A stretch of 64,000 bases of DNA from a virus. Numbering within the stretch: the stretch's first letter is position 1; the number at the start of each line of letters is the position of its first letter. The notes beneath the pieces are model-generated. The model was not told where the DNA came from and ran no database searches. It saw nothing but the letters and a program-made list of their open reading frames with translations. The stretch lies in the IMG/VR virus record IMGVR_UViG_3300026076_000001. One strand, written 5' to 3'. Positions 16,246-59,496 of this stretch are shown here, piece after piece. A program made the position numbers and the translations under genes.

Positions 16246-16252
16246 TATTTAG
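16246..16252 (-). promoter_or_regulatory. Late-promoter-like CTAAATA
   Basis: Upstream of 15587-16228. Confidence 0.5.
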
Positions 16253-17079: not shown

Positions 17080-17244
17080 TTATTTAGGCTCTTGTACTGC
17101 TTTTTTCTTGGGAAGTAAACGTTTCTTTGCCTTCTTCTTCATTAACTCCTTCGGATCATCCGTGTCGGAATTAATCTCAGGCATAATCTCTATTTCAGAG
17201 GTATCCTCAGGAAGTTCTGCTCTTAGTTGGTAGAATGTTTTCAT
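17080..17244 (-). CDS. Small hypothetical protein
   Basis: Start MKTFYQL at 17244 (ATGA coupling). Confidence 0.5.
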   Translation of the reverse strand: MKTFYQLRAELPEDTSEIEIMPEINSDTDDPKELMKKKAKKRLLPKKKAVQEPK

Positions 17245-17474
17245 AGTACTGAATACTCCTCCAGATCTTTTACCCAAGATCTAAAAATTTTGTTGTCTTC
17301 TGCTAGTGCTATTATATAGTTAGGTCCACGGCGAATTACCTTACCCACCTTACCATTACTGATGTTCTTGACCCAATCACCTTCGCAAAAGACCTGATCG
17401 TGACGGAAATCCTCTTGGACTTCACGTTCAAATCTCTCTGTTATATTGGTACGAAACTGTTTAAAGGATTTCAT
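17241..17474 (-). CDS. Small hypothetical protein (SH3-like beta pattern)
   Basis: MKSFKQF...GDWVKN...GKVIRRGPNYII. Confidence 0.6.
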   Translation of the reverse strand: MKSFKQFRTNITERFEREVQEDFRHDQVFCEGDWVKNISNGKVGKVIRRGPNYIIALAEDNKIFRSWVKDLEEYSVL

Positions 17475-17971
17475 TATACATCAAATACGAATAGATCGAA
17501 CTTAGCATCATCTACATTGACACCTGCAGCTGGATCAGATGCTGTACCAATAAAGGTAGTACCATTAACCTTTTCAAGATTAAACACTAGTGGTAGTCCT
17601 CTGCCAGCCGCACTATCATTATGATAATGACACTGTGCTAATACAAGATAACTAGCAGTATCACCATAGTCGTGATCCATAGTAAAGGTAAACTGGAATG
17701 AACCATAATTTGCTACTGCACCATAAGTTACAGTAATACCTGCACCAGTCCAAGTATGTTCTGCTGTACCGAGACCGAAATTTGTAAATCCACCAGTTCC
17801 TTTAAACCTAGCAGCACCAACACCTGCTGAAATACCACCTGCTGTGCTACCATCAGAAACTTTCAGGTTACCTGCATTAGGATCGTAGAATAATTCTCCC
17901 TTGTTGCCTACAAAAGTAGCAGCATTAGTACCACCCAACTTTTCTAGAAAGGGTCTATAAGTATCAGCCAT
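17474..17971 (-). CDS. Fibre/adhesin-like protein with Mtd-N-like N-terminal domain
   Basis: FVGNKGELFYD....LKVSDG.TAGG; start MADTY at 17971. Confidence 0.6.
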   Translation of the reverse strand: MADTYRPFLEKLGGTNAATFVGNKGELFYDPNAGNLKVSDGSTAGGISAGVGAARFKGTGGFTNFGLGTAEHTWTGAGITVTYGAVANYGSFQFTFTMDHDYGDTASYLVLAQCHYHNDSAAGRGLPLVFNLEKVNGTTFIGTASDPAAGVNVDDAKFDLFVFDV

Positions 17972-18197
17972 TTTTCTTATCGAAATCGTGAATGTTTTCT
18001 GACCCACCTACAGAGAATGGGTTGTATTTACTAGTAGCTATCTTATACATTTTCTCGTGAATGGTTTCATCAATTTGATCTTCGTAGTCAAGACCATCGT
18101 CTTCCCATTCTTCAATAGATTTGTCTGTTGCTATAGGCATAAGGTCCAAGGGGTTATCGTGGAACCAAGGATCATAATGAATTCTTGGTAAGGTCAT
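17964..18197 (-). CDS. Small hypothetical protein
   Basis: Start MTLPRI at 18197 (TAATG coupling). Confidence 0.55.
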   Translation of the reverse strand: MTLPRIHYDPWFHDNPLDLMPIATDKSIEEWEDDGLDYEDQIDETIHEKMYKIATSKYNPFSVGGSENIHDFDKKNG

Positions 18198-18421
18198 TAG
18201 TCTTTCCAACCACCAGCTTTTAACCAGTTGTTGTAGTGAGGGTTGTCCCAGTTGTCACTAATCTCATAAGAAGGAATTACAACCTCTTGGATGTATCTCC
18301 TGTTCTCTACTGCTAATTCTTCAGCGTGTTTTGATGCACCATCTATATTAGATGCCCACCAGATGCCACCACCTATTTGGACTGCTAAGAATGTAAGTAA
18401 TGGTATTGGAATGCTTTTCAT
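18197..18421 (-). CDS. Small membrane-anchored hypothetical protein
   Basis: Hydrophobic N-terminus LLTFLAVQIGGGIWW. Confidence 0.6.
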   Translation of the reverse strand: MKSIPIPLLTFLAVQIGGGIWWASNIDGASKHAEELAVENRRYIQEVVIPSYEISDNWDNPHYNNWLKAGGWKD

Positions 18422-18777
18422 TTTTTCTTCACTCTTTTTTTAATGTTCATTAGTTTTTTCTTTGCAGGAGGAGGTGTGTCATCATATCTATAGTTGGATG
18501 TTGGATTGTTAATCAATGGATCCGTTTCAACAATCTCTGAAAGATTGTCACTTAGATTAAACACAAGTTCTTCACTAGCATCAGAGTTACTACCCTGAAA
18601 CTCAGTCATTCTTGTTTCCTTTTCTTCCTGTGATACATCATCTACTGTGTAGCGATCCCACATCTTTCCACCATAGCCACAAGTGCCACGCTTCTCCCTC
18701 TTTTCACAAAGACGACAGTATTTTTCACCAGTCTTTTTCTTTGCGGGAGGGCACTTAAATTCAGAGAGTTTCTTCAT
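18418..18777 (-). CDS. Hypothetical protein with Cys cluster
   Basis: C...KYCRLC.K.E.R..C.YG motif. Confidence 0.6.
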   Translation of the reverse strand: MKKLSEFKCPPAKKKTGEKYCRLCEKREKRGTCGYGGKMWDRYTVDDVSQEEKETRMTEFQGSNSDASEELVFNLSDNLSEIVETDPLINNPTSNYRYDDTPPPAKKKLMNIKKRVKKK

Positions 18778-19343
18778 TTAAAATTAGAAGGTAAGTTGCT
18801 CTTAATCTCATTCATCAGTTTCTTACATTCACCATCGCTTAATGCTCTGGGTATGCCTTGACGAAATGCTGTGAAGTCTTCAGCAAATGCTGCACGTCTC
18901 ATCTTAGTACCAGATATTGCAAACGTATCACCGTCTGCATCACGATTACCAGATGAAACAACTTCTAGAGATCGGAAATAATAGTCCTTTCCGTTATATT
19001 TATGAATCCACTGAAATGCAGCTACACGATCTGACCCAACAACCAGTACAGCATCATCATATCCATCATTTTGTATGTCTTGTAAGCATTCTATCACAGA
19101 TTTTTGTGCATTACAGATGTTGTTGGCATAGGAACGGAACATCTTCTTCATCCACTGCACCTTCTTAGTTGATTCTAATGGATTTTTACCAGTTTTATCG
19201 TGTGATTTGGATGTATATACCCTCCAGTCACATTTAGAAGCTGCATTTTTTACCCCTTTTATGTTCTCCTCGTGTCCTATGGTTGGTGGTTGAAACCTAC
19301 CAAAGGTAAAGTAGCAGCAATCGTATAATTTTTCTAACGCCAT
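18774..19343 (-). CDS. Cytidyltransferase-like (HxGH-superfamily) nucleotidyltransferase
   Basis: FTFGRFQPPTIGH, VVGSDR, ISGTKMR. Confidence 0.85.
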   Translation of the reverse strand: MALEKLYDCCYFTFGRFQPPTIGHEENIKGVKNAASKCDWRVYTSKSHDKTGKNPLESTKKVQWMKKMFRSYANNICNAQKSVIECLQDIQNDGYDDAVLVVGSDRVAAFQWIHKYNGKDYYFRSLEVVSSGNRDADGDTFAISGTKMRRAAFAEDFTAFRQGIPRALSDGECKKLMNEIKSNLPSNFK

Positions 19344-20542
19344 TGCTTCTGGATAGTAAAGTTGTTGTATGCAAACTCAAGACGGTTGACCAACTTAATC
19401 ATATTACCATCTTGGTGTAGTACATACCCTTCAGGAGTGGTCACCTTATAACCCTTCTCAGTCTCAACGTAAGTCCTAAAGGTCTCAAGTTTATCTAGCT
19501 TATCTATGATGAATTGTTTGGTCTCCTGAATCTCCTTATAGAGTTCAATCATATATCTGAATGATGATTCATTGTCATCTAAGTATTTCTCTGACTCATA
19601 AACCAACTGACGCTTTGCAGTAAGATTCTTTTGTGTCTTAATCTTGGCAAGTTCCTTCTTCATCTTCTCGTGATAGAAAGTGATCAACTTATCAAGAGTT
19701 CCTCTGACATCACCAACTGCTTGACCCTCACGGATCATACTATTAAAGAATTGCTTGAGGTATGAAGCAACGTGAAATTTTTTATCCCCAGTTGTTCCCG
19801 TTTTTTCCACAATATTATTGAGGAATTCCCCAGTCTTTCCACAGAGCTGAAAAATCTTATTGATCTGTTGCTCGAAGTGGCTCATTTCAGAGGTCGTAAG
19901 TGTCACTTCCTGTATAGATGTGTCGTTAGATATGACAGCTACTTCAGAAACCTTTTGGTATGTATGGATAGGTGCACCTGCTCTTGCTTGCATAGTTGGC
20001 AAGTCATTACCAGTGTAATGGGTATGGAATACCACTCCAATCTTTGCACTACCTACCTGTTGACCTATCTCGTGATCAGTTGGTATAGCATATGAAATAG
20101 TATTAGGTCTAAAACTATAAACCTTTTCACCTTGTATAGTCTCAGTCTTTCTAGTATCGTCAGTGAATAGCAAGTCACCCTGTATCACACCATTAATACC
20201 CAACTTCTTAAAATACTTGTAAGAGTACTTCAACTTCTTAGCTAGATCTCCTTCATACCATCTGTCTACTGCTTCCTCACTGAAACACATCTTAGGTTCA
20301 GTCTTATTAAACACAGACTTAGTACCTACAAAGAACATACCACTGTTAGGTTCCTTACCACATATAACAGCAGGAGCACCGTCCCACTTAGTCTGCATAA
20401 AACCTGTGGCATCTGCCTTCTTACCTAGCATCTTTGCTAGTTCTCTTAAAAAATTTACAGCAGCGTGACACCCTTCAACCCCATAGTTGAGCATCTCATC
20501 CTCAAGGTGTTCGAGGTGTTTTAACTGAGTGACATTTGCCAT
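19334..20542 (-). CDS. Conserved phage protein with ATP-dependent ligase/adenylyltransferase-like motifs
   Basis: TKWDGAP (motif I KxDG), IQGDLLF (III), VVFH (IIIa), PEGYV (IV), IKLV.R (V). Confidence 0.55.
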   Translation of the reverse strand: MANVTQLKHLEHLEDEMLNYGVEGCHAAVNFLRELAKMLGKKADATGFMQTKWDGAPAVICGKEPNSGMFFVGTKSVFNKTEPKMCFSEEAVDRWYEGDLAKKLKYSYKYFKKLGINGVIQGDLLFTDDTRKTETIQGEKVYSFRPNTISYAIPTDHEIGQQVGSAKIGVVFHTHYTGNDLPTMQARAGAPIHTYQKVSEVAVISNDTSIQEVTLTTSEMSHFEQQINKIFQLCGKTGEFLNNIVEKTGTTGDKKFHVASYLKQFFNSMIREGQAVGDVRGTLDKLITFYHEKMKKELAKIKTQKNLTAKRQLVYESEKYLDDNESSFRYMIELYKEIQETKQFIIDKLDKLETFRTYVETEKGYKVTTPEGYVLHQDGNMIKLVNRLEFAYNNFTIQKQWR

Positions 20543-21807
20543 TACTGATAGTCTTTTCTTACTCGGTCTTTCATATGAGTACTACCGATAGGAGGATTAG
20601 CATCCTCATCCATAGTCTCAGTCCACATATTTTCTTTATCAAACTTATATCCTGACTGTAGCTTATCTGGCCAACCACCACCTTGGTCTTCACCTGCTGC
20701 CCTACCAGTTCTACCACCAGAGGTATCTCTTATATTGAACTTGAATACAACACCAGGACAGTTAACCTCAATATTAATTCTTACACCCGTACCAGTCTGA
20801 CCACCATAGTAGACATCAACTGACGTTGGATTAGCAAAGGAGTCACATAACCCCTTAGTCATTTCAAAGTTGTATATATTACCACCTCCCTGTTGATGAC
20901 AGTAGTGGTATCCATATCCTACAGATCCTAAGATCATAGAACGAAGTAAAGGTCTGTCATACTTGACATTCATCTCTGCTCCACCACCTTGAACTACACC
21001 AGCACCCTGATCAGCAGCACCAGTCTTAAATATTTGACAAAATTTTTCGTTGTTAATACCAAAAGTTTTTAATATAGCTAGACCAGTCTCGTGTGTGATA
21101 GCACCAGATTCTATCTGATCCCTTGAGAAGAATTTAGTTACACCAAGGTTTGACATAGTAGTGGTACCACTAGTTTTCAGTGAAAGATATATTAAACCAA
21201 CTCCACGTGCTGACTTCTCACAACTATACTTCAGTGTAATGTCAGTAACCTTAGCACCTATATTATAATTGGTATCAGTTGCTTCACCAATCTGCCACTT
21301 ATTACCTAGGTATTTCATAGGTCGCTTCTGGTTTAAAGCTCCCATTGGCATTACCTCTACGATCTCACATTCTTCTAGATCGTAGTGTTTAATAATATCC
21401 TTAGCAAATTGATGATACGGACCTGGAGGTACTTCTCCTTCTTCTTTCCATAATCTAAGATATCTTTCTAATGCTTCTTCAAATAAAGAACCAGCATTCT
21501 GTTTACCTCTACCTCCTCTACTACCATCACCAAACGAAATCTTTAAACCAGTACCCTTAATACCATATGCTTTCTTAAGATCACCAATGGTTGCATATTT
21601 TACTTTGACTGCTCTTGCTACCTTAACTTGATTCTTTGATGTACTTTGAAATGCTAATGGTCCTTGAACAGCAATGTCAGGATCATCAGTAAGACCCTTC
21701 CATAAACTATAGACGTTATCCATCTTCTCACTTTCGTGAGATTCATACAAGGTACCAAAAAGTTTTAGTGCCTCTGGGTTTGTCTTTGGAATTTTGTCGT
21801 ATGCCAT
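20542..21807 (-). CDS. Large hypothetical protein, possible PD-(D/E)xK nuclease fold
   Basis: LFEE...KVTDITL...IYLSLKT arrangement; CTAAATA at 21813-21819 upstream. Confidence 0.45.
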   Translation of the reverse strand: MAYDKIPKTNPEALKLFGTLYESHESEKMDNVYSLWKGLTDDPDIAVQGPLAFQSTSKNQVKVARAVKVKYATIGDLKKAYGIKGTGLKISFGDGSRGGRGKQNAGSLFEEALERYLRLWKEEGEVPPGPYHQFAKDIIKHYDLEECEIVEVMPMGALNQKRPMKYLGNKWQIGEATDTNYNIGAKVTDITLKYSCEKSARGVGLIYLSLKTSGTTTMSNLGVTKFFSRDQIESGAITHETGLAILKTFGINNEKFCQIFKTGAADQGAGVVQGGGAEMNVKYDRPLLRSMILGSVGYGYHYCHQQGGGNIYNFEMTKGLCDSFANPTSVDVYYGGQTGTGVRINIEVNCPGVVFKFNIRDTSGGRTGRAAGEDQGGGWPDKLQSGYKFDKENMWTETMDEDANPPIGSTHMKDRVRKDYQ

Positions 21808-21822
21808 AAGACTATTTAGATT

Positions 21823-21960: not shown

Positions 21961-22243
21961 CTTTGTGCTTAACATCATACTCAATGATGATCTTCTTACT
22001 ACTTATGCCAGTAGAGGTCAAAGTTTCCATTCTTGTTGCAGTTCCATTCAATAGAGCAGCAATTTGTAATATCTCAGCGATGAGATCTCCTTGATCTACT
22101 GCATAATCCTCTTGAGGAACTTCACATTCCTTATATTCTTCAACACATTCTGTTTCACATTCTTTATCTTTAGGATCACAATCAGTAGTACACTCAAGAA
22201 GTTGATCGGTACAATCCTTTTCTTCCTTAGGTCTGAGTTTCAT
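21941..22243 (-). CDS. Small protein with six periodic cysteines
   Basis: CX6CX3CX6CX3CX6C in an acidic context. Confidence 0.6.
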   Translation of the reverse strand: MKLRPKEEKDCTDQLLECTTDCDPKDKECETECVEEYKECEVPQEDYAVDQGDLIAEILQIAALLNGTATRMETLTSTGISSKKIIIEYDVKHKDEVGTD

Positions 22244-23019
22244 TTGAATACAGGAATAGGAACTAGTTTGGTGTTAAAGAAATCTTTTGATCTCTCGAAC
22301 ACAGGATAGAATTGACATACTCCTTTCTCTGAACTACAAGCTTCCATTGGAGTCCAGTGGAGGTCATCTATAATGTCATACCCTATACTAACACGAATTC
22401 CCTCATATGGCAAGGGCTTTACAGCGTGCATTAACGGACCAGGACCAAGATACTGTAGTCCTTGCTTGTTCTCTATCTTATATGGATACTCATCAGCATC
22501 TAGTGGGTGCTTAGTACGATCATCATTCTCATAGTACCAAAGACACTGTTCATCTCTATCATCAAAATTCTTAGGGATCCAATCTGCAAATACTGTCTCA
22601 GTTGGTTTATCACTTAGGTGAATAAATCCGTGGTACTTACAATAGCTATGGTTGTGCCATCCCAATGACATCTTACCTAACTCCTCATACCTATGTGCAT
22701 TCATCCAAGCGTGTATCCACAGTGGTTTAGATTCTAATCCTGGATAGGATCTAACATTTTTAAATACTTGGTTCCACAAATAGAAAAATTCTGGCATCGT
22801 AGATGACAGTGTGATGATGTTATAAGCGTTCTTGCTCATAGACATATCCCACTCATCTGCTTTACCGTGCATAGAACTTTCATACATTGGTTCTATGGCT
22901 GCTTTCCATAGACCATATGCAGTCCTAGCTTCTGTTAGTAATTCTTTCCATAATACATCGACCTCGTATGTTCGTACGAGGTCTAAAAGATTATCACAAT
23001 CATAACTGACTGTCTTCAA
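22240..23019 (-). CDS. 2OG-Fe(II)/cupin oxygenase-like protein
   Basis: WMNAH...GWHNH....HGFIHLS...HAV...RVSIGYD; paralog of 32416-33054. Confidence 0.6.
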   Translation of the reverse strand: MKTVSYDCDNLLDLVRTYEVDVLWKELLTEARTAYGLWKAAIEPMYESSMHGKADEWDMSMSKNAYNIITLSSTMPEFFYLWNQVFKNVRSYPGLESKPLWIHAWMNAHRYEELGKMSLGWHNHSYCKYHGFIHLSDKPTETVFADWIPKNFDDRDEQCLWYYENDDRTKHPLDADEYPYKIENKQGLQYLGPGPLMHAVKPLPYEGIRVSIGYDIIDDLHWTPMEACSSEKGVCQFYPVFERSKDFFNTKLVPIPVFK

Positions 23020-23020
23020 T

Positions 23021-23437
23021 TTATAAATCCCCTGATACTCTATTCTCTGATCTAGTTACTTCAAAAGATCCAGTAGGATATCTAGCAAGTAATTTAGCCA
23101 TATTCTGTGCAACGACTTGATTAAAATCAAATCCTAATGCCATACAAGCTTGACTATAATACCAGAATACATCTCCTAGTTCACGTAACAAATGTACTTT
23201 TGTGTCATCGGTTAATACCTTTCCTTGGAAAGTTACCTTCTTCACAATCTCTGCAAACTCACCACCTTCAGCACTAAGACCAATAGCAGCAGTAAGCAAA
23301 CGTGCAATATCTACACCCTGTTTATCTAGTTCTTGAATTCTGTGAATGAATTCAGCATTGTTCTTAGATGGTTGGCTTGTGGTACCATCCACAAACTCCA
23401 TATATTGATCAATGTCAACTACTGTACGGTCAGTCAT
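23021..23437 (-). CDS. mazG: MazG-family NTP pyrophosphohydrolase
   Basis: GLSAEGGEFAEIVKK...ELGDVFWY...N..KL.ARYP. Confidence 0.9.
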   Translation of the reverse strand: MTDRTVVDIDQYMEFVDGTTSQPSKNNAEFIHRIQELDKQGVDIARLLTAAIGLSAEGGEFAEIVKKVTFQGKVLTDDTKVHLLRELGDVFWYYSQACMALGFDFNQVVAQNMAKLLARYPTGSFEVTRSENRVSGDL

Positions 23438-24810
23438 ACTACAAAATCAGCAAATTTGGAAGTGTTTTTCTTTTCAAAGTCAGGTGTGAAATCAACATCC
23501 TTGGCTTCTGCCTCGGAGTCTTTACCTTGTTCAACATCATACAGCTTCATCTTCGCTCTGTCAATACCCACAACAAATCTTCTATACATTGTAGGATCAT
23601 TATACCTGTTCTTTAACTGCTTAACCATTATTTGATTCTGGGCTTCAAGTTCTTCAGAAGATATAAGAGCAAACATAAAGTCAGCAGTAGCGGGTAACCC
23701 GAAGGATTCAGAAGTGTCAGTAAGATCAACGTCAGTAGAACCAAAGCCAGAACGAGTGGTCTGTGTCGCTGAGATAATCGGGAGATCGAACTCGACGGCG
23801 AGACCACGAAGTTCTTCTGCAATCGCTTTAACATAAGTATAGGAATTAACAATAGCACCTTTATATCTGGAACTAGCACAGATGTTAAGGTAGTCGATGA
23901 ATATGATGTCAGGTACGAATGACTTCTTCAAGGCTAGTTCATTCATCAATGACCTAAAGTGACCAGAGTGTGCTGAAGCAGTAGGATACTCTTTGATGAT
24001 TAACTTACCCTGTGTCTTACGTGAGAGATCTGATACCTTGGATTCAAAAATCATCCTAGGTAGATCTGGTATGTCTTTTATATTAACGTTGAGAAGGTTA
24101 GCATCAATACGTTCTGCTATCTTTTCTTCTGCCATCTCAAGGGTAATATACAAGACATTCTTACCCTGTGACAAACAAGATGCTGCTACGTGGCACATAA
24201 ACAGGGACTTCCCTACTCCTGTTCCAGCGAGAGCAACATTAAGTGTTTTGTTGGGTATACCGCCCTTGGTAATCTTATTGAAGTATTCCAGATCAAACGA
24301 AGTTTTTTCCTCGTCAGTAGTATAGAAATCAAAGCGTTCTTGATAGTCAACCAGATAATCGTGACCAATATGATCGTCAAAAGATACCGATAGAGCTTCT
24401 TTAAGGATGTCAGGAATTGCATCCCGACTTTTCTTATCGTCTTTACCATCAGCGAGCTTGATAGACTCCATCAAAGCTATGTATATTGCCCTGTCTTTAC
24501 ACCACTTCTCAGTGGCATCAAGCAACCAATCCTCTGTAGGATCTTCTATATCTTTGAATGAGTCACAGAGATCTCTGACTTTACCATAAGTCTCATCAGA
24601 AACATCTTGCCGTCCCTCGACTTCAATGAGTATAACCTCCGTGGTCGGGAGACGGTCATACTTAGAAGCGAAGTTTTGGATCTCTTCGTATACGACCTTC
24701 TCGTGTAATTCTTCATAGTATTCAGATTTTATAAAGGGAAGTACCTTACGATAGTACTCTTCATTACTGAGGAGACTCCGTAGAATAGTCCTCTCAATAC
24801 GTTCATTCAT
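23434..24810 (-). CDS. gp41: Replicative DNA helicase
   Basis: [36 protein letters not shown]. Confidence 0.96.
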
Positions 24811-46391: not shown

Positions 46392-46418
46392 CGACTCATC
46401 AGTTCATTACAAGACTAT

Positions 46419-46640
46419 TTAGTCCTTGTACATTACCCAGTTTTCAGCAAAGTCTTCGCAGTATATTAAATTATCGTAGTAGCGATGATAAGAAGAAGTA
46501 GCCCCCTTAATAAAATCGGTCGCACGTATACAACGTCTGTCGTACTCAACGCATATAGCACAGAATCTTCCGTCATCTTCTTCGACAACGAGTGCTGATC
46601 TTCTATCATTGTCGGAATAGTAAGTGGAGTGTCTAATCAT
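46419..46640 (-). CDS. Small hypothetical protein with its own promoter
   Basis: Start MIRHSTYY at 46640; TGC-TATAAT at 46648-46656. Confidence 0.55.
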   Translation of the reverse strand: MIRHSTYYSDNDRRSALVVEEDDGRFCAICVEYDRRCIRATDFIKGATSSYHRYYDNLIYCEDFAENWVMYKD

Positions 46641-51846: not shown

Positions 51847-51885
51847 AATAAGGTAGTATACCTTGTACTAAGGTATTTAGTCAAT

Positions 51886-52476: not shown

Positions 52477-52518
52477 TTGCTATTGACCTCTGTTAATTTA
52501 TTTAGCGGGAGTGAATCT

Positions 52519-59334: not shown

Positions 59335-59496
59335 CTAGTCTTTATTTGTATTTAGATTTGACGACCATTTTTTGTGGGAGTATGCACCACCCTTCACTCC
59401 AAATGATCTCTTCGTATCATTTGATACCTTGTCTGAGATCGGTGTCATCTGACCCGATTCTTCGAGATCCTTTAGTATCGCTTTGAAGGGACGCAT
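59335..59496 (-). CDS. Small hypothetical protein (53 aa, MRPFKAILKDLEES...)
   Basis: Translated by hand; downstream of ATAAATA at 59522-59528. Confidence 0.45.
   Translation of the reverse strand: MRPFKAILKDLEESGQMTPISDKVSNDTKRSFGVKGGAYSHKKWSSNLNTNKD

Follow-up and report, generated by a model that had tools for sequence, protein, structure and literature searches.

A 402-amino-acid (402-aa) protein of the family DUF6267, encoded in a 64,000-nucleotide stretch of viral DNA (IMG/VR record IMGVR_UViG_3300026076_000001; this whole stretch is called the window below), is very likely a highly divergent member of the covalent nucleotidyltransferase superfamily. In its predicted structure it is closest in shape to the RNA ligases, lacks an OB domain and falls into no named ligase family. 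Its gene overlaps that of a 189-aa HxGH (HIGH-type) nucleotidyltransferase, and in other phages the two are fused. The reading that we favour, with a confidence a little above even, is that the 402-aa protein joins polynucleotides as a divergent, ATP-dependent ligase from the RNA-ligase branch, acting with its HxGH partner in an end-healing and sealing pathway. The window has the gene content of a T4-like cyanophage, with all genes on the minus strand, and its nearest record is S-RIM32. The two genes and their principal elements are:

19334..20542, minus strand: 402-aa DUF6267 protein, predicted divergent ligase-type covalent nucleotidyltransferase (PF19782, fold, motifs)
20378..20392, minus strand: motif I, TKWDG (residues 51-55), with K52 as the predicted AMP-accepting lysine (K52, D54 and G55 invariant)
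19382..19435, minus strand: motifs IV and V, PEGYV ... IKLVNR (residues 370-387), on adjacent strands (conservation, model)
19487..19900, minus strand: all-helical insert (~residues 215-352) between motif IIIa/FHT and motif IV (model helices)
18774..19343, minus strand: 189-aa HxGH (HIGH-type) nucleotidyltransferase, NMNAT-like (PF01467, phrog_3041)
19272..19301, minus strand: GRFQPPTIGH, the (H/T)xGH nucleotide-binding motif (G15, R16, P19, G23 and H24 invariant)

Conserved motifs and predicted fold of the DUF6267 protein

The 402-aa protein matches the Pfam family DUF6267 (PF19782) over its full length (E 2.8e-125), and also phrog_455; both are annotated as of unknown function, and no publication naming DUF6267 turned up in our literature search. 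The family is large (2378 clusters at 50% identity) and has hardly any members outside phages: of its 75 matches in 'genomes', almost all come from metagenomic bins or from assemblies of single cells, often on contigs of phage size. The two open reading frames (ORFs) described in the first-pass annotation of this DNA are in place, overlapping and on the minus strand, and every motif that it listed was found: TKWDG (residues 51-55), IQGDLLF (120-126), VVFH (170-173), PEGYV (370-374) and IKLVNR (382-387) in the 402-aa ORF, and GRFQPPTIGH (15-24), GSDR (103-106) and ISGTKMR (143-149) in the 189-aa ORF. The motifs of the 402-aa protein exceed what chance would give, since they are invariant across 64 homologues: in an alignment of 64 diverse sequences (29-59% identity to the 402-aa query), H9, H12, K52, D54, G55, P57, G122, D123, Y151, H173, T174, K342, E371, G372 and K383 do not vary, and R387 is conserved in at least 90%. 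The annotation would have abandoned its reading if homologues had lost the KWDG lysine; K52 is retained in all 64. Syn9 gp183 (320 aa) covers the entire Pfam profile, the helical insert being shorter in the forms of ~300-320 aa.

In the AlphaFold2 (AF2) model of the 402-aa protein (pLDDT 92.5, pTM 0.90), motifs I, III, IIIa, IV and V occur on β-strands in the order found in ligases. Motif I lies in a strand-loop-strand (strands 48-52 and 58-63), G122-D123 on strand 119-127 and F144/Y151 on strands 139-154, while strand 372-377 carries E371-G372 and strand 380-384 carries K383. The insert, of ~135 residues, is formed by helices 217-248, 258-271, 279-300, 304-323 and 325-352. The chain stops 19 residues past motif V, with a single short helix, and an OB domain is absent.

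An exhaustive structure aligner, run with this model against 48,161 PDB chains, gave NgrRnl as the best match (Z 8.4 over 182-183 aa, root-mean-square deviation 3.8), followed by the ligase domain of Trl1 (Z 8.0 over 195 aa), with T4 Rnl2 at Z 7.2, T4 Rnl1 at Z 6.7, archaeal Rnl3 at Z 6.4 and REL1 at Z 6.2. The first six rows are all RNA ligases (Z 6.9-8.4, 173-195 aa aligned), the DNA ligases rank below the RNA ligases (Z 5-6.3), and helical bundles aligned to the insert account for the remaining rows. In a second structure search, more than 40 of the 50 rows were ATP-dependent ligases, and no NAD+-dependent ligase (LigA) chain is among the top 50 structural rows. Additionally, in the viral structure library BFVD the model matches a 591-aa fusion protein of phage S-PM2 (TM 0.94) and, at a greater distance, an annotated 'RNA ligase' of phage Atu_ph07 (probability 0.99, E 1.2e-3). 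The ligase-type fold proposed in the first-pass annotation is thus borne out by the model, by the structure matches and by motif conservation.

Several results weigh against this assignment. A Z of ~8 is only middling on the tool's own calibration, because the helical insert dilutes the ligase match. Of the structural tests that the annotation had proposed, the model and the BFVD match speak for a ligase, whereas Foldseek against the PDB returned nothing at E<=0.001; the ligase fold is visible only with the exhaustive aligner. No sequence-level link to any ligase family passes threshold. In particular, phmmer and hmmsearch against the PDB, with the 402-aa sequence and with the 64-sequence profile, gave only low-complexity matches in the insert, and hhalign against an alignment of 18 T4 Rnl2 sequences gave a probability of 0.1%, in a test weakened by the low diversity of that alignment. 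PF01068 (DNA ligase) matches neither the 402-aa protein nor any of the 64 members, and PF09414 (Rnl2/Rnl5) matches none of the 64 at E<=5, with a weak Atlas lead (score 0.76). PF09511 (T4 Rnl1) leaves sub-threshold traces in two of the 64 members (best E 6e-4) and in the S-RIM32 orthologue (14.9 bits, E 0.0016). Finally, the role of K52 as the catalytic lysine is a prediction that rests on motif order and secondary structure.

The best core matches, NgrRnl (Rnl5; 5cot, 6vt0) and T4 Rnl2 (2hvq, 1s68), are nick-sealing ATP-dependent RNA ligases which, like DUF6267, have a KxDG-type motif I, the same order of later motifs and no OB domain. Unlike them, DUF6267 has its accessory module as an insert between motifs IIIa and IV (and no N- or C-terminal domain), an Asp in place of Glu in motif III, one Lys plus an Arg in motif V, an N-terminal HLEHLED motif (with the invariant H9 and H12) and a constant HxGH partner, and shows no detectable sequence relation to either enzyme. 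Fungal Trl1 (ligase-kinase-CPD; 6n67, 9r3w), whose ligase domain is the second-best fold match, and T4 Rnl1 with Pnkp offer a further comparison. A Trl1-like ligase-kinase architecture is found in the phages where DUF6267 is fused to a Pnk/PSTK-type P-loop kinase; unlike Trl1 or Rnl1 with Pnkp, DUF6267 has no recognised CPD or phosphatase domain, its cyanophage version has no kinase, and it is paired with an HxGH enzyme.

In the mechanism that we propose, Lys52 of the KWDG motif would attack the α-phosphate of a donor nucleotide, giving a Lys-AMP adduct from which the AMP would be transferred to a 5'-phosphate end, and attack by a 3'-OH would then seal the break. The nucleotide pocket would be lined by D123 (motif III), F144 and Y151 (IIIa), E371-G372 (IV) and K383 and R387 (V), and the helical insert, standing in place of an OB or C-terminal domain, would probably hold the substrate, most likely broken RNA or RNA-containing nicks.

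The KxDG motif is common to capping enzymes as well, and the first-pass annotation had counted RNA capping among its options. We regard it as exceedingly improbable that DUF6267 is a capping guanylyltransferase: with the OB domain absent there is no place for motif VI, the C-terminal tail beyond motif V is short, the best structural matches are ligases (none of the rows is titled a capping enzyme), and no triphosphatase or methyltransferase was found among the neighbouring genes examined.

The HxGH partner and its coupling to DUF6267

The 189-aa protein matches PF01467 (CTP_transf_like; E 7e-7, 29.9 bits, cut-off 21) and phrog_3041, and in 41 homologues G15, R16, P19, G23, H24, G103, D105, R106, S144 and R149 are invariant. 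It has a Thr in place of the first His of HxGH, as does PPAT. Among these 41 members, 37 match the NadR-NMNAT model, 36 NadD, 18 the archaeal NMNAT and 13 PPAT, and no model for glycerol-3-phosphate or choline/ethanolamine cytidylyltransferases is among the families listed for them; the label 'cytidylyltransferase' derives only from the name of the Pfam family. The best PDB profile matches are likewise Methanocaldococcus (M.) jannaschii NMNAT (1f9a) and NadR. 'NMNAT-like' is used here for a resemblance and not for membership, since the scores fall well short of the curated thresholds (22 bits where TIGR01526 requires 341, 17 where PRK01153 requires 127) and the matches are restricted to the N-terminal ~70 residues, about a third of the protein. 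The characterised NMNATs (archaeal MJ0541/1f9a, NadR, NadD and NadM) resemble the HxGH partner in their GRFQPPTxGH and ISGTKMR-type motifs; unlike them, the phage protein is joined to a ~55-aa domain, DUF5824, a Pol-beta nucleotidyltransferase (NTase) or DUF6267, rather than to Nudix or ribosylnicotinamide kinase domains. The cyanophage literature also terms it an NMNAT homologue (PMC10665884).

Of the 63 homologous HxGH proteins, 34 carry the ~55-aa domain immediately behind HxGH. A small ORF of the window matches cluster c0 (E 4e-26) and is probably a detached module of the HxGH system:

17241..17474, minus strand: 77-aa ORF with the ~55-aa domain, cognate of the HxGH-fused module (profile match)

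In Atlas this domain has weak leads only, among them the DfrB dihydrofolate reductase family, an SH3-like barrel.

The coupling between DUF6267 and the HxGH enzyme is the strongest functional evidence that we have, though it is not absolute. The 402-aa and 189-aa genes overlap by 10 nucleotides (ATGGCGTTAG), and in ~60 of 80 viral loci an HxGH gene lies within a few genes downstream of DUF6267; the five records examined for a more distant HxGH gene, where DUF6267 has none close by, are fragments that are 3-21% complete. Natural fusions occur both in the order DUF6267-HxGH (P0123, P0126, P0173, P0209 and the S-PM2 protein of 591 aa) and in the reverse order (P0142, P0195, P0196), and in P0187, P0216 and P0269 the C-terminal domains of large HxGH proteins are fused ahead of DUF6267. 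The functional link to the HxGH enzyme that the first-pass annotation had suggested from the overlap thus gains from fusions in both orders. One of these fusion proteins, P0209 (1325 aa, metagenomic, predicted), joins DUF6267 and HxGH to a RimK-type ATP-grasp domain and a retropepsin-like 'Zn_protease'.

Other phages carry further components. In P0174 an AAA_33/Zeta kinase is fused to DUF6267, and the best named matches of this kinase cluster are PSTK (E 2.5e-10) and phage polynucleotide kinase. A much larger version of the system is present in the pelagiphage-type loci (L003, from Pelagibacter phage HTVC008M, 5197-8158, and L062, L074 and L078), where the order is DUF6267, adenylate kinase (PF00406, E 1e-38), a P-loop kinase and a large Pol-beta NTase/HxGH/DUF5824 protein, which in L062 additionally carries a PAP2 phosphatase in front. 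A ligase, a 5'-kinase and a template-independent nucleotidyltransferase together make up an RNA end-healing and sealing kit, as in T4 Pnkp/Rnl1, Trl1 and the RlaP-associated ligases (PMC7824862). Based on this parts list of kinase and Pol-beta domain, a role in polynucleotide repair or joining is therefore preferred over a purely metabolic one and, given the fusions to HxGH in both orders and to the Pnk/PSTK-like kinase, we read the pair as an end-healing and sealing system. The pelagiphage-type loci follow the same ligase, kinase and NTase logic as the RlaP-type RNA-ligase-associated nucleotidyltransferases (Burroughs and Aravind, as cited in PMC7824862) and phage RNA repair kits; unlike in the RlaP systems, the Pol-beta domain matches PF01909/PF18765 and not PF10127 (RlaP), and the ligase is DUF6267 rather than Rnl1, Rnl2 or RtcB. 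In our proposal, DUF6267 and the overlapping HxGH enzyme would act in one pathway, and probably in one complex, where the HxGH enzyme would either make an adenylyl donor such as NAD+ or itself adenylylate the phosphate end; the 'two-step nucleotide transfer' of the first-pass annotation would take this form.

This pathway also has points against it. Adjacency alone is weak evidence, because gene order is conserved across T4-like genomes, and some cyanophages have DUF6267 and HxGH ~100 kb apart. The Pnk-like kinase, the adenylate kinase and Tpt1 were not found in the window or in the cyanophages S-RIM32 and Syn9, Tpt1 being absent from all four phage genomes searched for it, and the cyanophage loci lack the phosphatase as well; the kinase-less cyanophage version would therefore need ends that are already 3'-OH and 5'-phosphate. 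Furthermore, we know of no ligase that needs an HxGH partner, and the pathway may differ from the one proposed. No DUF6267 lies near the HxGH homologue of the Rak2-like jumbo phages.

These Rak2-like phages (L161-L163: Klebsiella phage Muenster, Yersinia phage fHe-Yen9-04 and Erwinia phage Kaldavass) encode members of this HxGH subfamily (matching the HxGH profile at E 1e-34 to 1e-40) immediately behind a gene for a small DNA methyltransferase; in the Yersinia and Erwinia phages, a gene for an Rnl1-type RNA ligase lies ~4.5 kb downstream of the HxGH gene.

The NMNAT families, being the only specific (if sub-threshold) matches of the HxGH family, also bring in a small-molecule pathway, in which the pair would make or recycle NAD+ or another dinucleotide (e.g. 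ApnA), either to counter an NAD+-depleting host defence or for signalling, and the ligase-like protein would move AMP to a small phosphate acceptor, with no polynucleotide involved. T4 RNA and DNA ligases can produce ApnA in vitro, the pelagiphage-type loci do contain an adenylate kinase, and phages are known to counter such defence by reconstituting NAD+ (cited in PMC12801897 and discussed in PMC7824862). We nevertheless judge this pathway quite unlikely. The associated kinase resembles PSTK/Pnk and shows no match to the NadR model (which we expect to cover the ribosylnicotinamide kinase domain as well), the loci examined showed neither a Nampt nor a Nudix partner, and the large helical insert suggests a macromolecular substrate. 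In the ligase/capping superfamily, polynucleotide ends are the substrate of all characterised members known to us.

The gene block, its nuclease and its promoter-like motif

Together with the genes on either side, the 402-aa and 189-aa ORFs form one translationally coupled block of four (421, 402, 189 and 119 aa) downstream of a CTAAATA motif. The surrounding features are:

23434-24810, minus strand: gp41-type helicase
23021-23437, minus strand: MazG
21813..21819, minus strand: CTAAATA, T4-type late-promoter-like motif before the block
20542..21807, minus strand: 421-aa HinP1I/MspI-like PD-(D/E)xK endonuclease, leading the four-gene block (phrog_8438, fold match)
18418..18777, minus strand: 119-aa Lys/Cys-rich ORF, last of the four-gene block (ORF, ATGA junction)

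The 421-aa and 402-aa genes are joined by TAATG and the 189-aa and 119-aa genes by ATGA. The 119-aa ORF has a weak DUF1660 match (E 0.086) and a homologue in one of 80 loci. Two other ORFs lie on either side of the block. A 177-aa ORF at 17474-18007 (minus strand; phrog_36222) has an N-terminal, sub-cut-off match to Mtd_N (major tropism determinant, E 2.9e-4) and may be a fragment of a fibre or receptor-binding protein amid small ORFs, and a 259-aa ORF at 22240-23019 (minus strand), between MazG and the nuclease, has a weak, sub-cut-off match to the 2OG-Fe(II) oxygenase family PF13759 (E 0.027).

The 421-aa protein has no Pfam match. Its AF2 model (pLDDT 77.6) shows, at residues ~104-395, the fold of monomeric type IIP restriction endonucleases: in the VIA comparison HinP1I reaches Z 8.0 (201 aa) and MspI Z 6.6, with the next unrelated rows at Z ~4, and Foldseek gives this match a probability of 0.98-0.99. 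The residues T188-D189-x19-S209-x-K211, invariant in its family, fit the (S/T)D...x-K motif of the PD-(D/E)xK core. No methyltransferase was noted among the scanned genes adjoining it, and the predicted fold is one that could belong to a phage nuclease shredding GC-rich host DNA, a function that reviews describe as unassigned in cyanomyoviruses. This type of gene is upstream of DUF6267 in only 13 of 85 loci, and hhalign found no relation between the 421-aa protein and the gene families that stand upstream of DUF6267 elsewhere (e.g. phrog_1462). Since the slot holds unrelated genes in other phages, the nuclease is an exchangeable neighbour outside the conserved core. The first-pass annotation had recognised neither this nuclease-like gene nor the Pnk-like kinase and Pol-beta NTase of other phages.

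The window is also short of certain palindromes. CATG occurs 0 times (expected ~204-227), CCGG 0 times (33-100) and GCGC 0 times (26-100), with just four CGCG, while GATC, GTAC and other palindromes are at normal levels; in 80 related viral loci CCGG is nearly always at 0, and CATG or GATC is at 0 only in some lineages. The missing palindromes look like the result of selection by 4-cutter restriction enzymes, of host or phage. The HinP1I site is GCGC and the MspI site CCGG. No specific link between this nuclease and the palindromes emerged: most cyanophage loci are free of CCGG irrespective of the upstream gene, and S-RIM32 has the nuclease gene yet contains GCGC.

The CTAAATA motif lies 5 nucleotides ahead of the ATG of the 421-aa ORF. 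In the window as a whole the motif is not enriched (15 copies against 14.7 in shuffles), but it occurs exclusively on the coding (minus) strand, and an ORF starts 16-27 nucleotides downstream of 10 of the 14 copies listed. The 15 sites, among them 16246-16252, 17081-17087, 46416-46422, 51874-51880, 52499-52505 and 59349-59355, give a candidate late-promoter map of the window. In each of 12 other loci the homologous nuclease gene is preceded by TAAATA, at a distance of 19-31 nucleotides in 11 and of ~50 in one. Judging from this positional pattern, CTAAATA is probably a real T4-type late promoter, and the pair would be transcribed, probably late, together with the HinP1I/MspI-like endonuclease. 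The late promoter named in the first-pass annotation is thus favoured by a position kept across homologous loci and stays putative here, at a spacing of 5 nucleotides which would make the transcript almost leaderless.

The annotation had also suggested that the pair may be packaged. S-CREM2 virions yielded three peptides of a cytidylyltransferase termed an NMNAT homologue, along with two hypothetical proteins encoded downstream, and the proteome list has no hypothetical protein for the gene slot immediately preceding the cytidylyltransferase (ORF154), a slot not confirmed as DUF6267; the authors call such detections frequent in cyanophages and caution about carry-over (PMC10665884). This favours packaging, indirectly, for the HxGH partner only. 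Together with the late-promoter-like motif and the faint Rnl1 (gp63) sequence traces, the virion detections would also suit a structural or assembly role, like that of T4 gp63 (Rnl1), or a virion-packaged, injected protein, with catalysis secondary in either case. T4 gp63 has tail-fibre attachment as a second function. We consider such a role for DUF6267 very unlikely: the residues of catalytic type are strictly invariant, which argues for catalysis, the upstream-position protein is missing from the S-CREM2 list, and the first 20 residues of the 402-aa protein contain no (L/I)xE capsid-targeting cleavage motif.

The ligase gap of T4-like cyanophages

DUF6267 is a near-universal core gene of the T4-like cyanophages: tblastn recovered it from 368 'Synechococcus' and 61 'Cyanophage' records, compared with 377 and 61 for the gp41 helicase, and among the other ~1900 T4-like records it is in none of the top-listed enterobacterial groups (Escherichia, Klebsiella, Salmonella). 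Its neighbourhood consists of replication and nucleotide-metabolism genes (gp41, MazG, UvsX, gp43, Nrd, gp61). A 2010 review described the cyanomyoviruses as being without the gp30 ligase and RNase H, allowed for 'distant homologues not yet identified' and assumed that host enzymes substitute (PMC2984593). We examined this absence in related complete phage genomes and in the six frames of the window. The cyanophages S-RIM32 and Syn9 and the pelagiphage HTVC008M have no match to PF01068, PF09414 or PF01653 and none above threshold to PF09511, PF01653 (NAD+-dependent ligase) is without a match in four phage genomes, and the six frames of the window contain no Rnl2-like or gp30-like frame.

The distributions of DUF6267 and gp30 are complementary and therefore support another possibility, namely that DUF6267 is the missing DNA ligase of the cyanomyoviruses, sealing Okazaki and recombination nicks as well as concatemer nicks before packaging. 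On this reading the NMNAT-like partner would supply NAD+ as the donor to DUF6267 or to the host LigA. A core gene that the T4-likes having gp30 lack, three complete genomes with no other recognised ligase, the replication and nucleotide-metabolism setting, the adjoining DNA endonuclease, the NMNAT-like character of the HxGH partner and the ligase question stated in PMC2984593 all favour a DNA ligase. We still think it unlikely, for reasons that begin with the fold. ATP-dependent DNA ligases (T4 gp30, the Chlorella virus ligase, LIG1) have the nucleotidyltransferase fold in common with DUF6267 but, unlike them, DUF6267 has no OB domain, no motif VI and no PF01068 match, whereas every DNA ligase known to us has an OB domain. 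RNA ligases fit the model better (Z 7-8.4 against 5-6), and the top 50 structural rows include no NAD-dependent ligase. Stenotrophomonas phage DLP6 carries a normal gp30-type ligase alongside DUF6267, a late-looking promoter would be odd for a replication ligase, and the fused Pnk-like kinase and Pol-beta NTase indicate end repair.

Taken one step further, DUF6267 and HxGH may together form a novel ligation system of two enzymes and be the ligase that has long been missing from T4-like cyanophages and pelagiphages, a proposal that we consider unlikely. The HIGH-type enzyme would make an NAD+-type donor on site, recycling NMN, or would pre-adenylylate the phosphate end, and the OB-less ligase core would then seal RNA and/or DNA. 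We know of no described ligase that divides the labour in this way.

The favoured reading, a polynucleotide ligase of the RNA-ligase branch, agrees with the broader statement that DUF6267 very probably encodes a divergent strand-joining (ligase-type) enzyme working with an NMNAT-like nucleotidyltransferase. The range of likely functions is reduced, short of proof, to the joining of polynucleotide ends, assisted by a HIGH-type nucleotidyltransferase.

Few marine viruses are as abundant as the T4-like cyanophages and pelagiphages, which have been described since 2005-2010 as having neither a DNA ligase nor RNase H (PMC2984593). This gap can now be put to the test, because a core gene restricted to phages shows a ligase fold and invariant residues. 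If active, the DUF6267 protein would represent a new ligase architecture, in which an insert replaces the OB or C-terminal domain, possibly with a new cofactor arrangement, and it would be of interest to the study of RNA repair as well as being a potential reagent. Pfam DUF6267 would gain a function, and the label 'cytidylyltransferase' could be corrected in hundreds of phage genomes.

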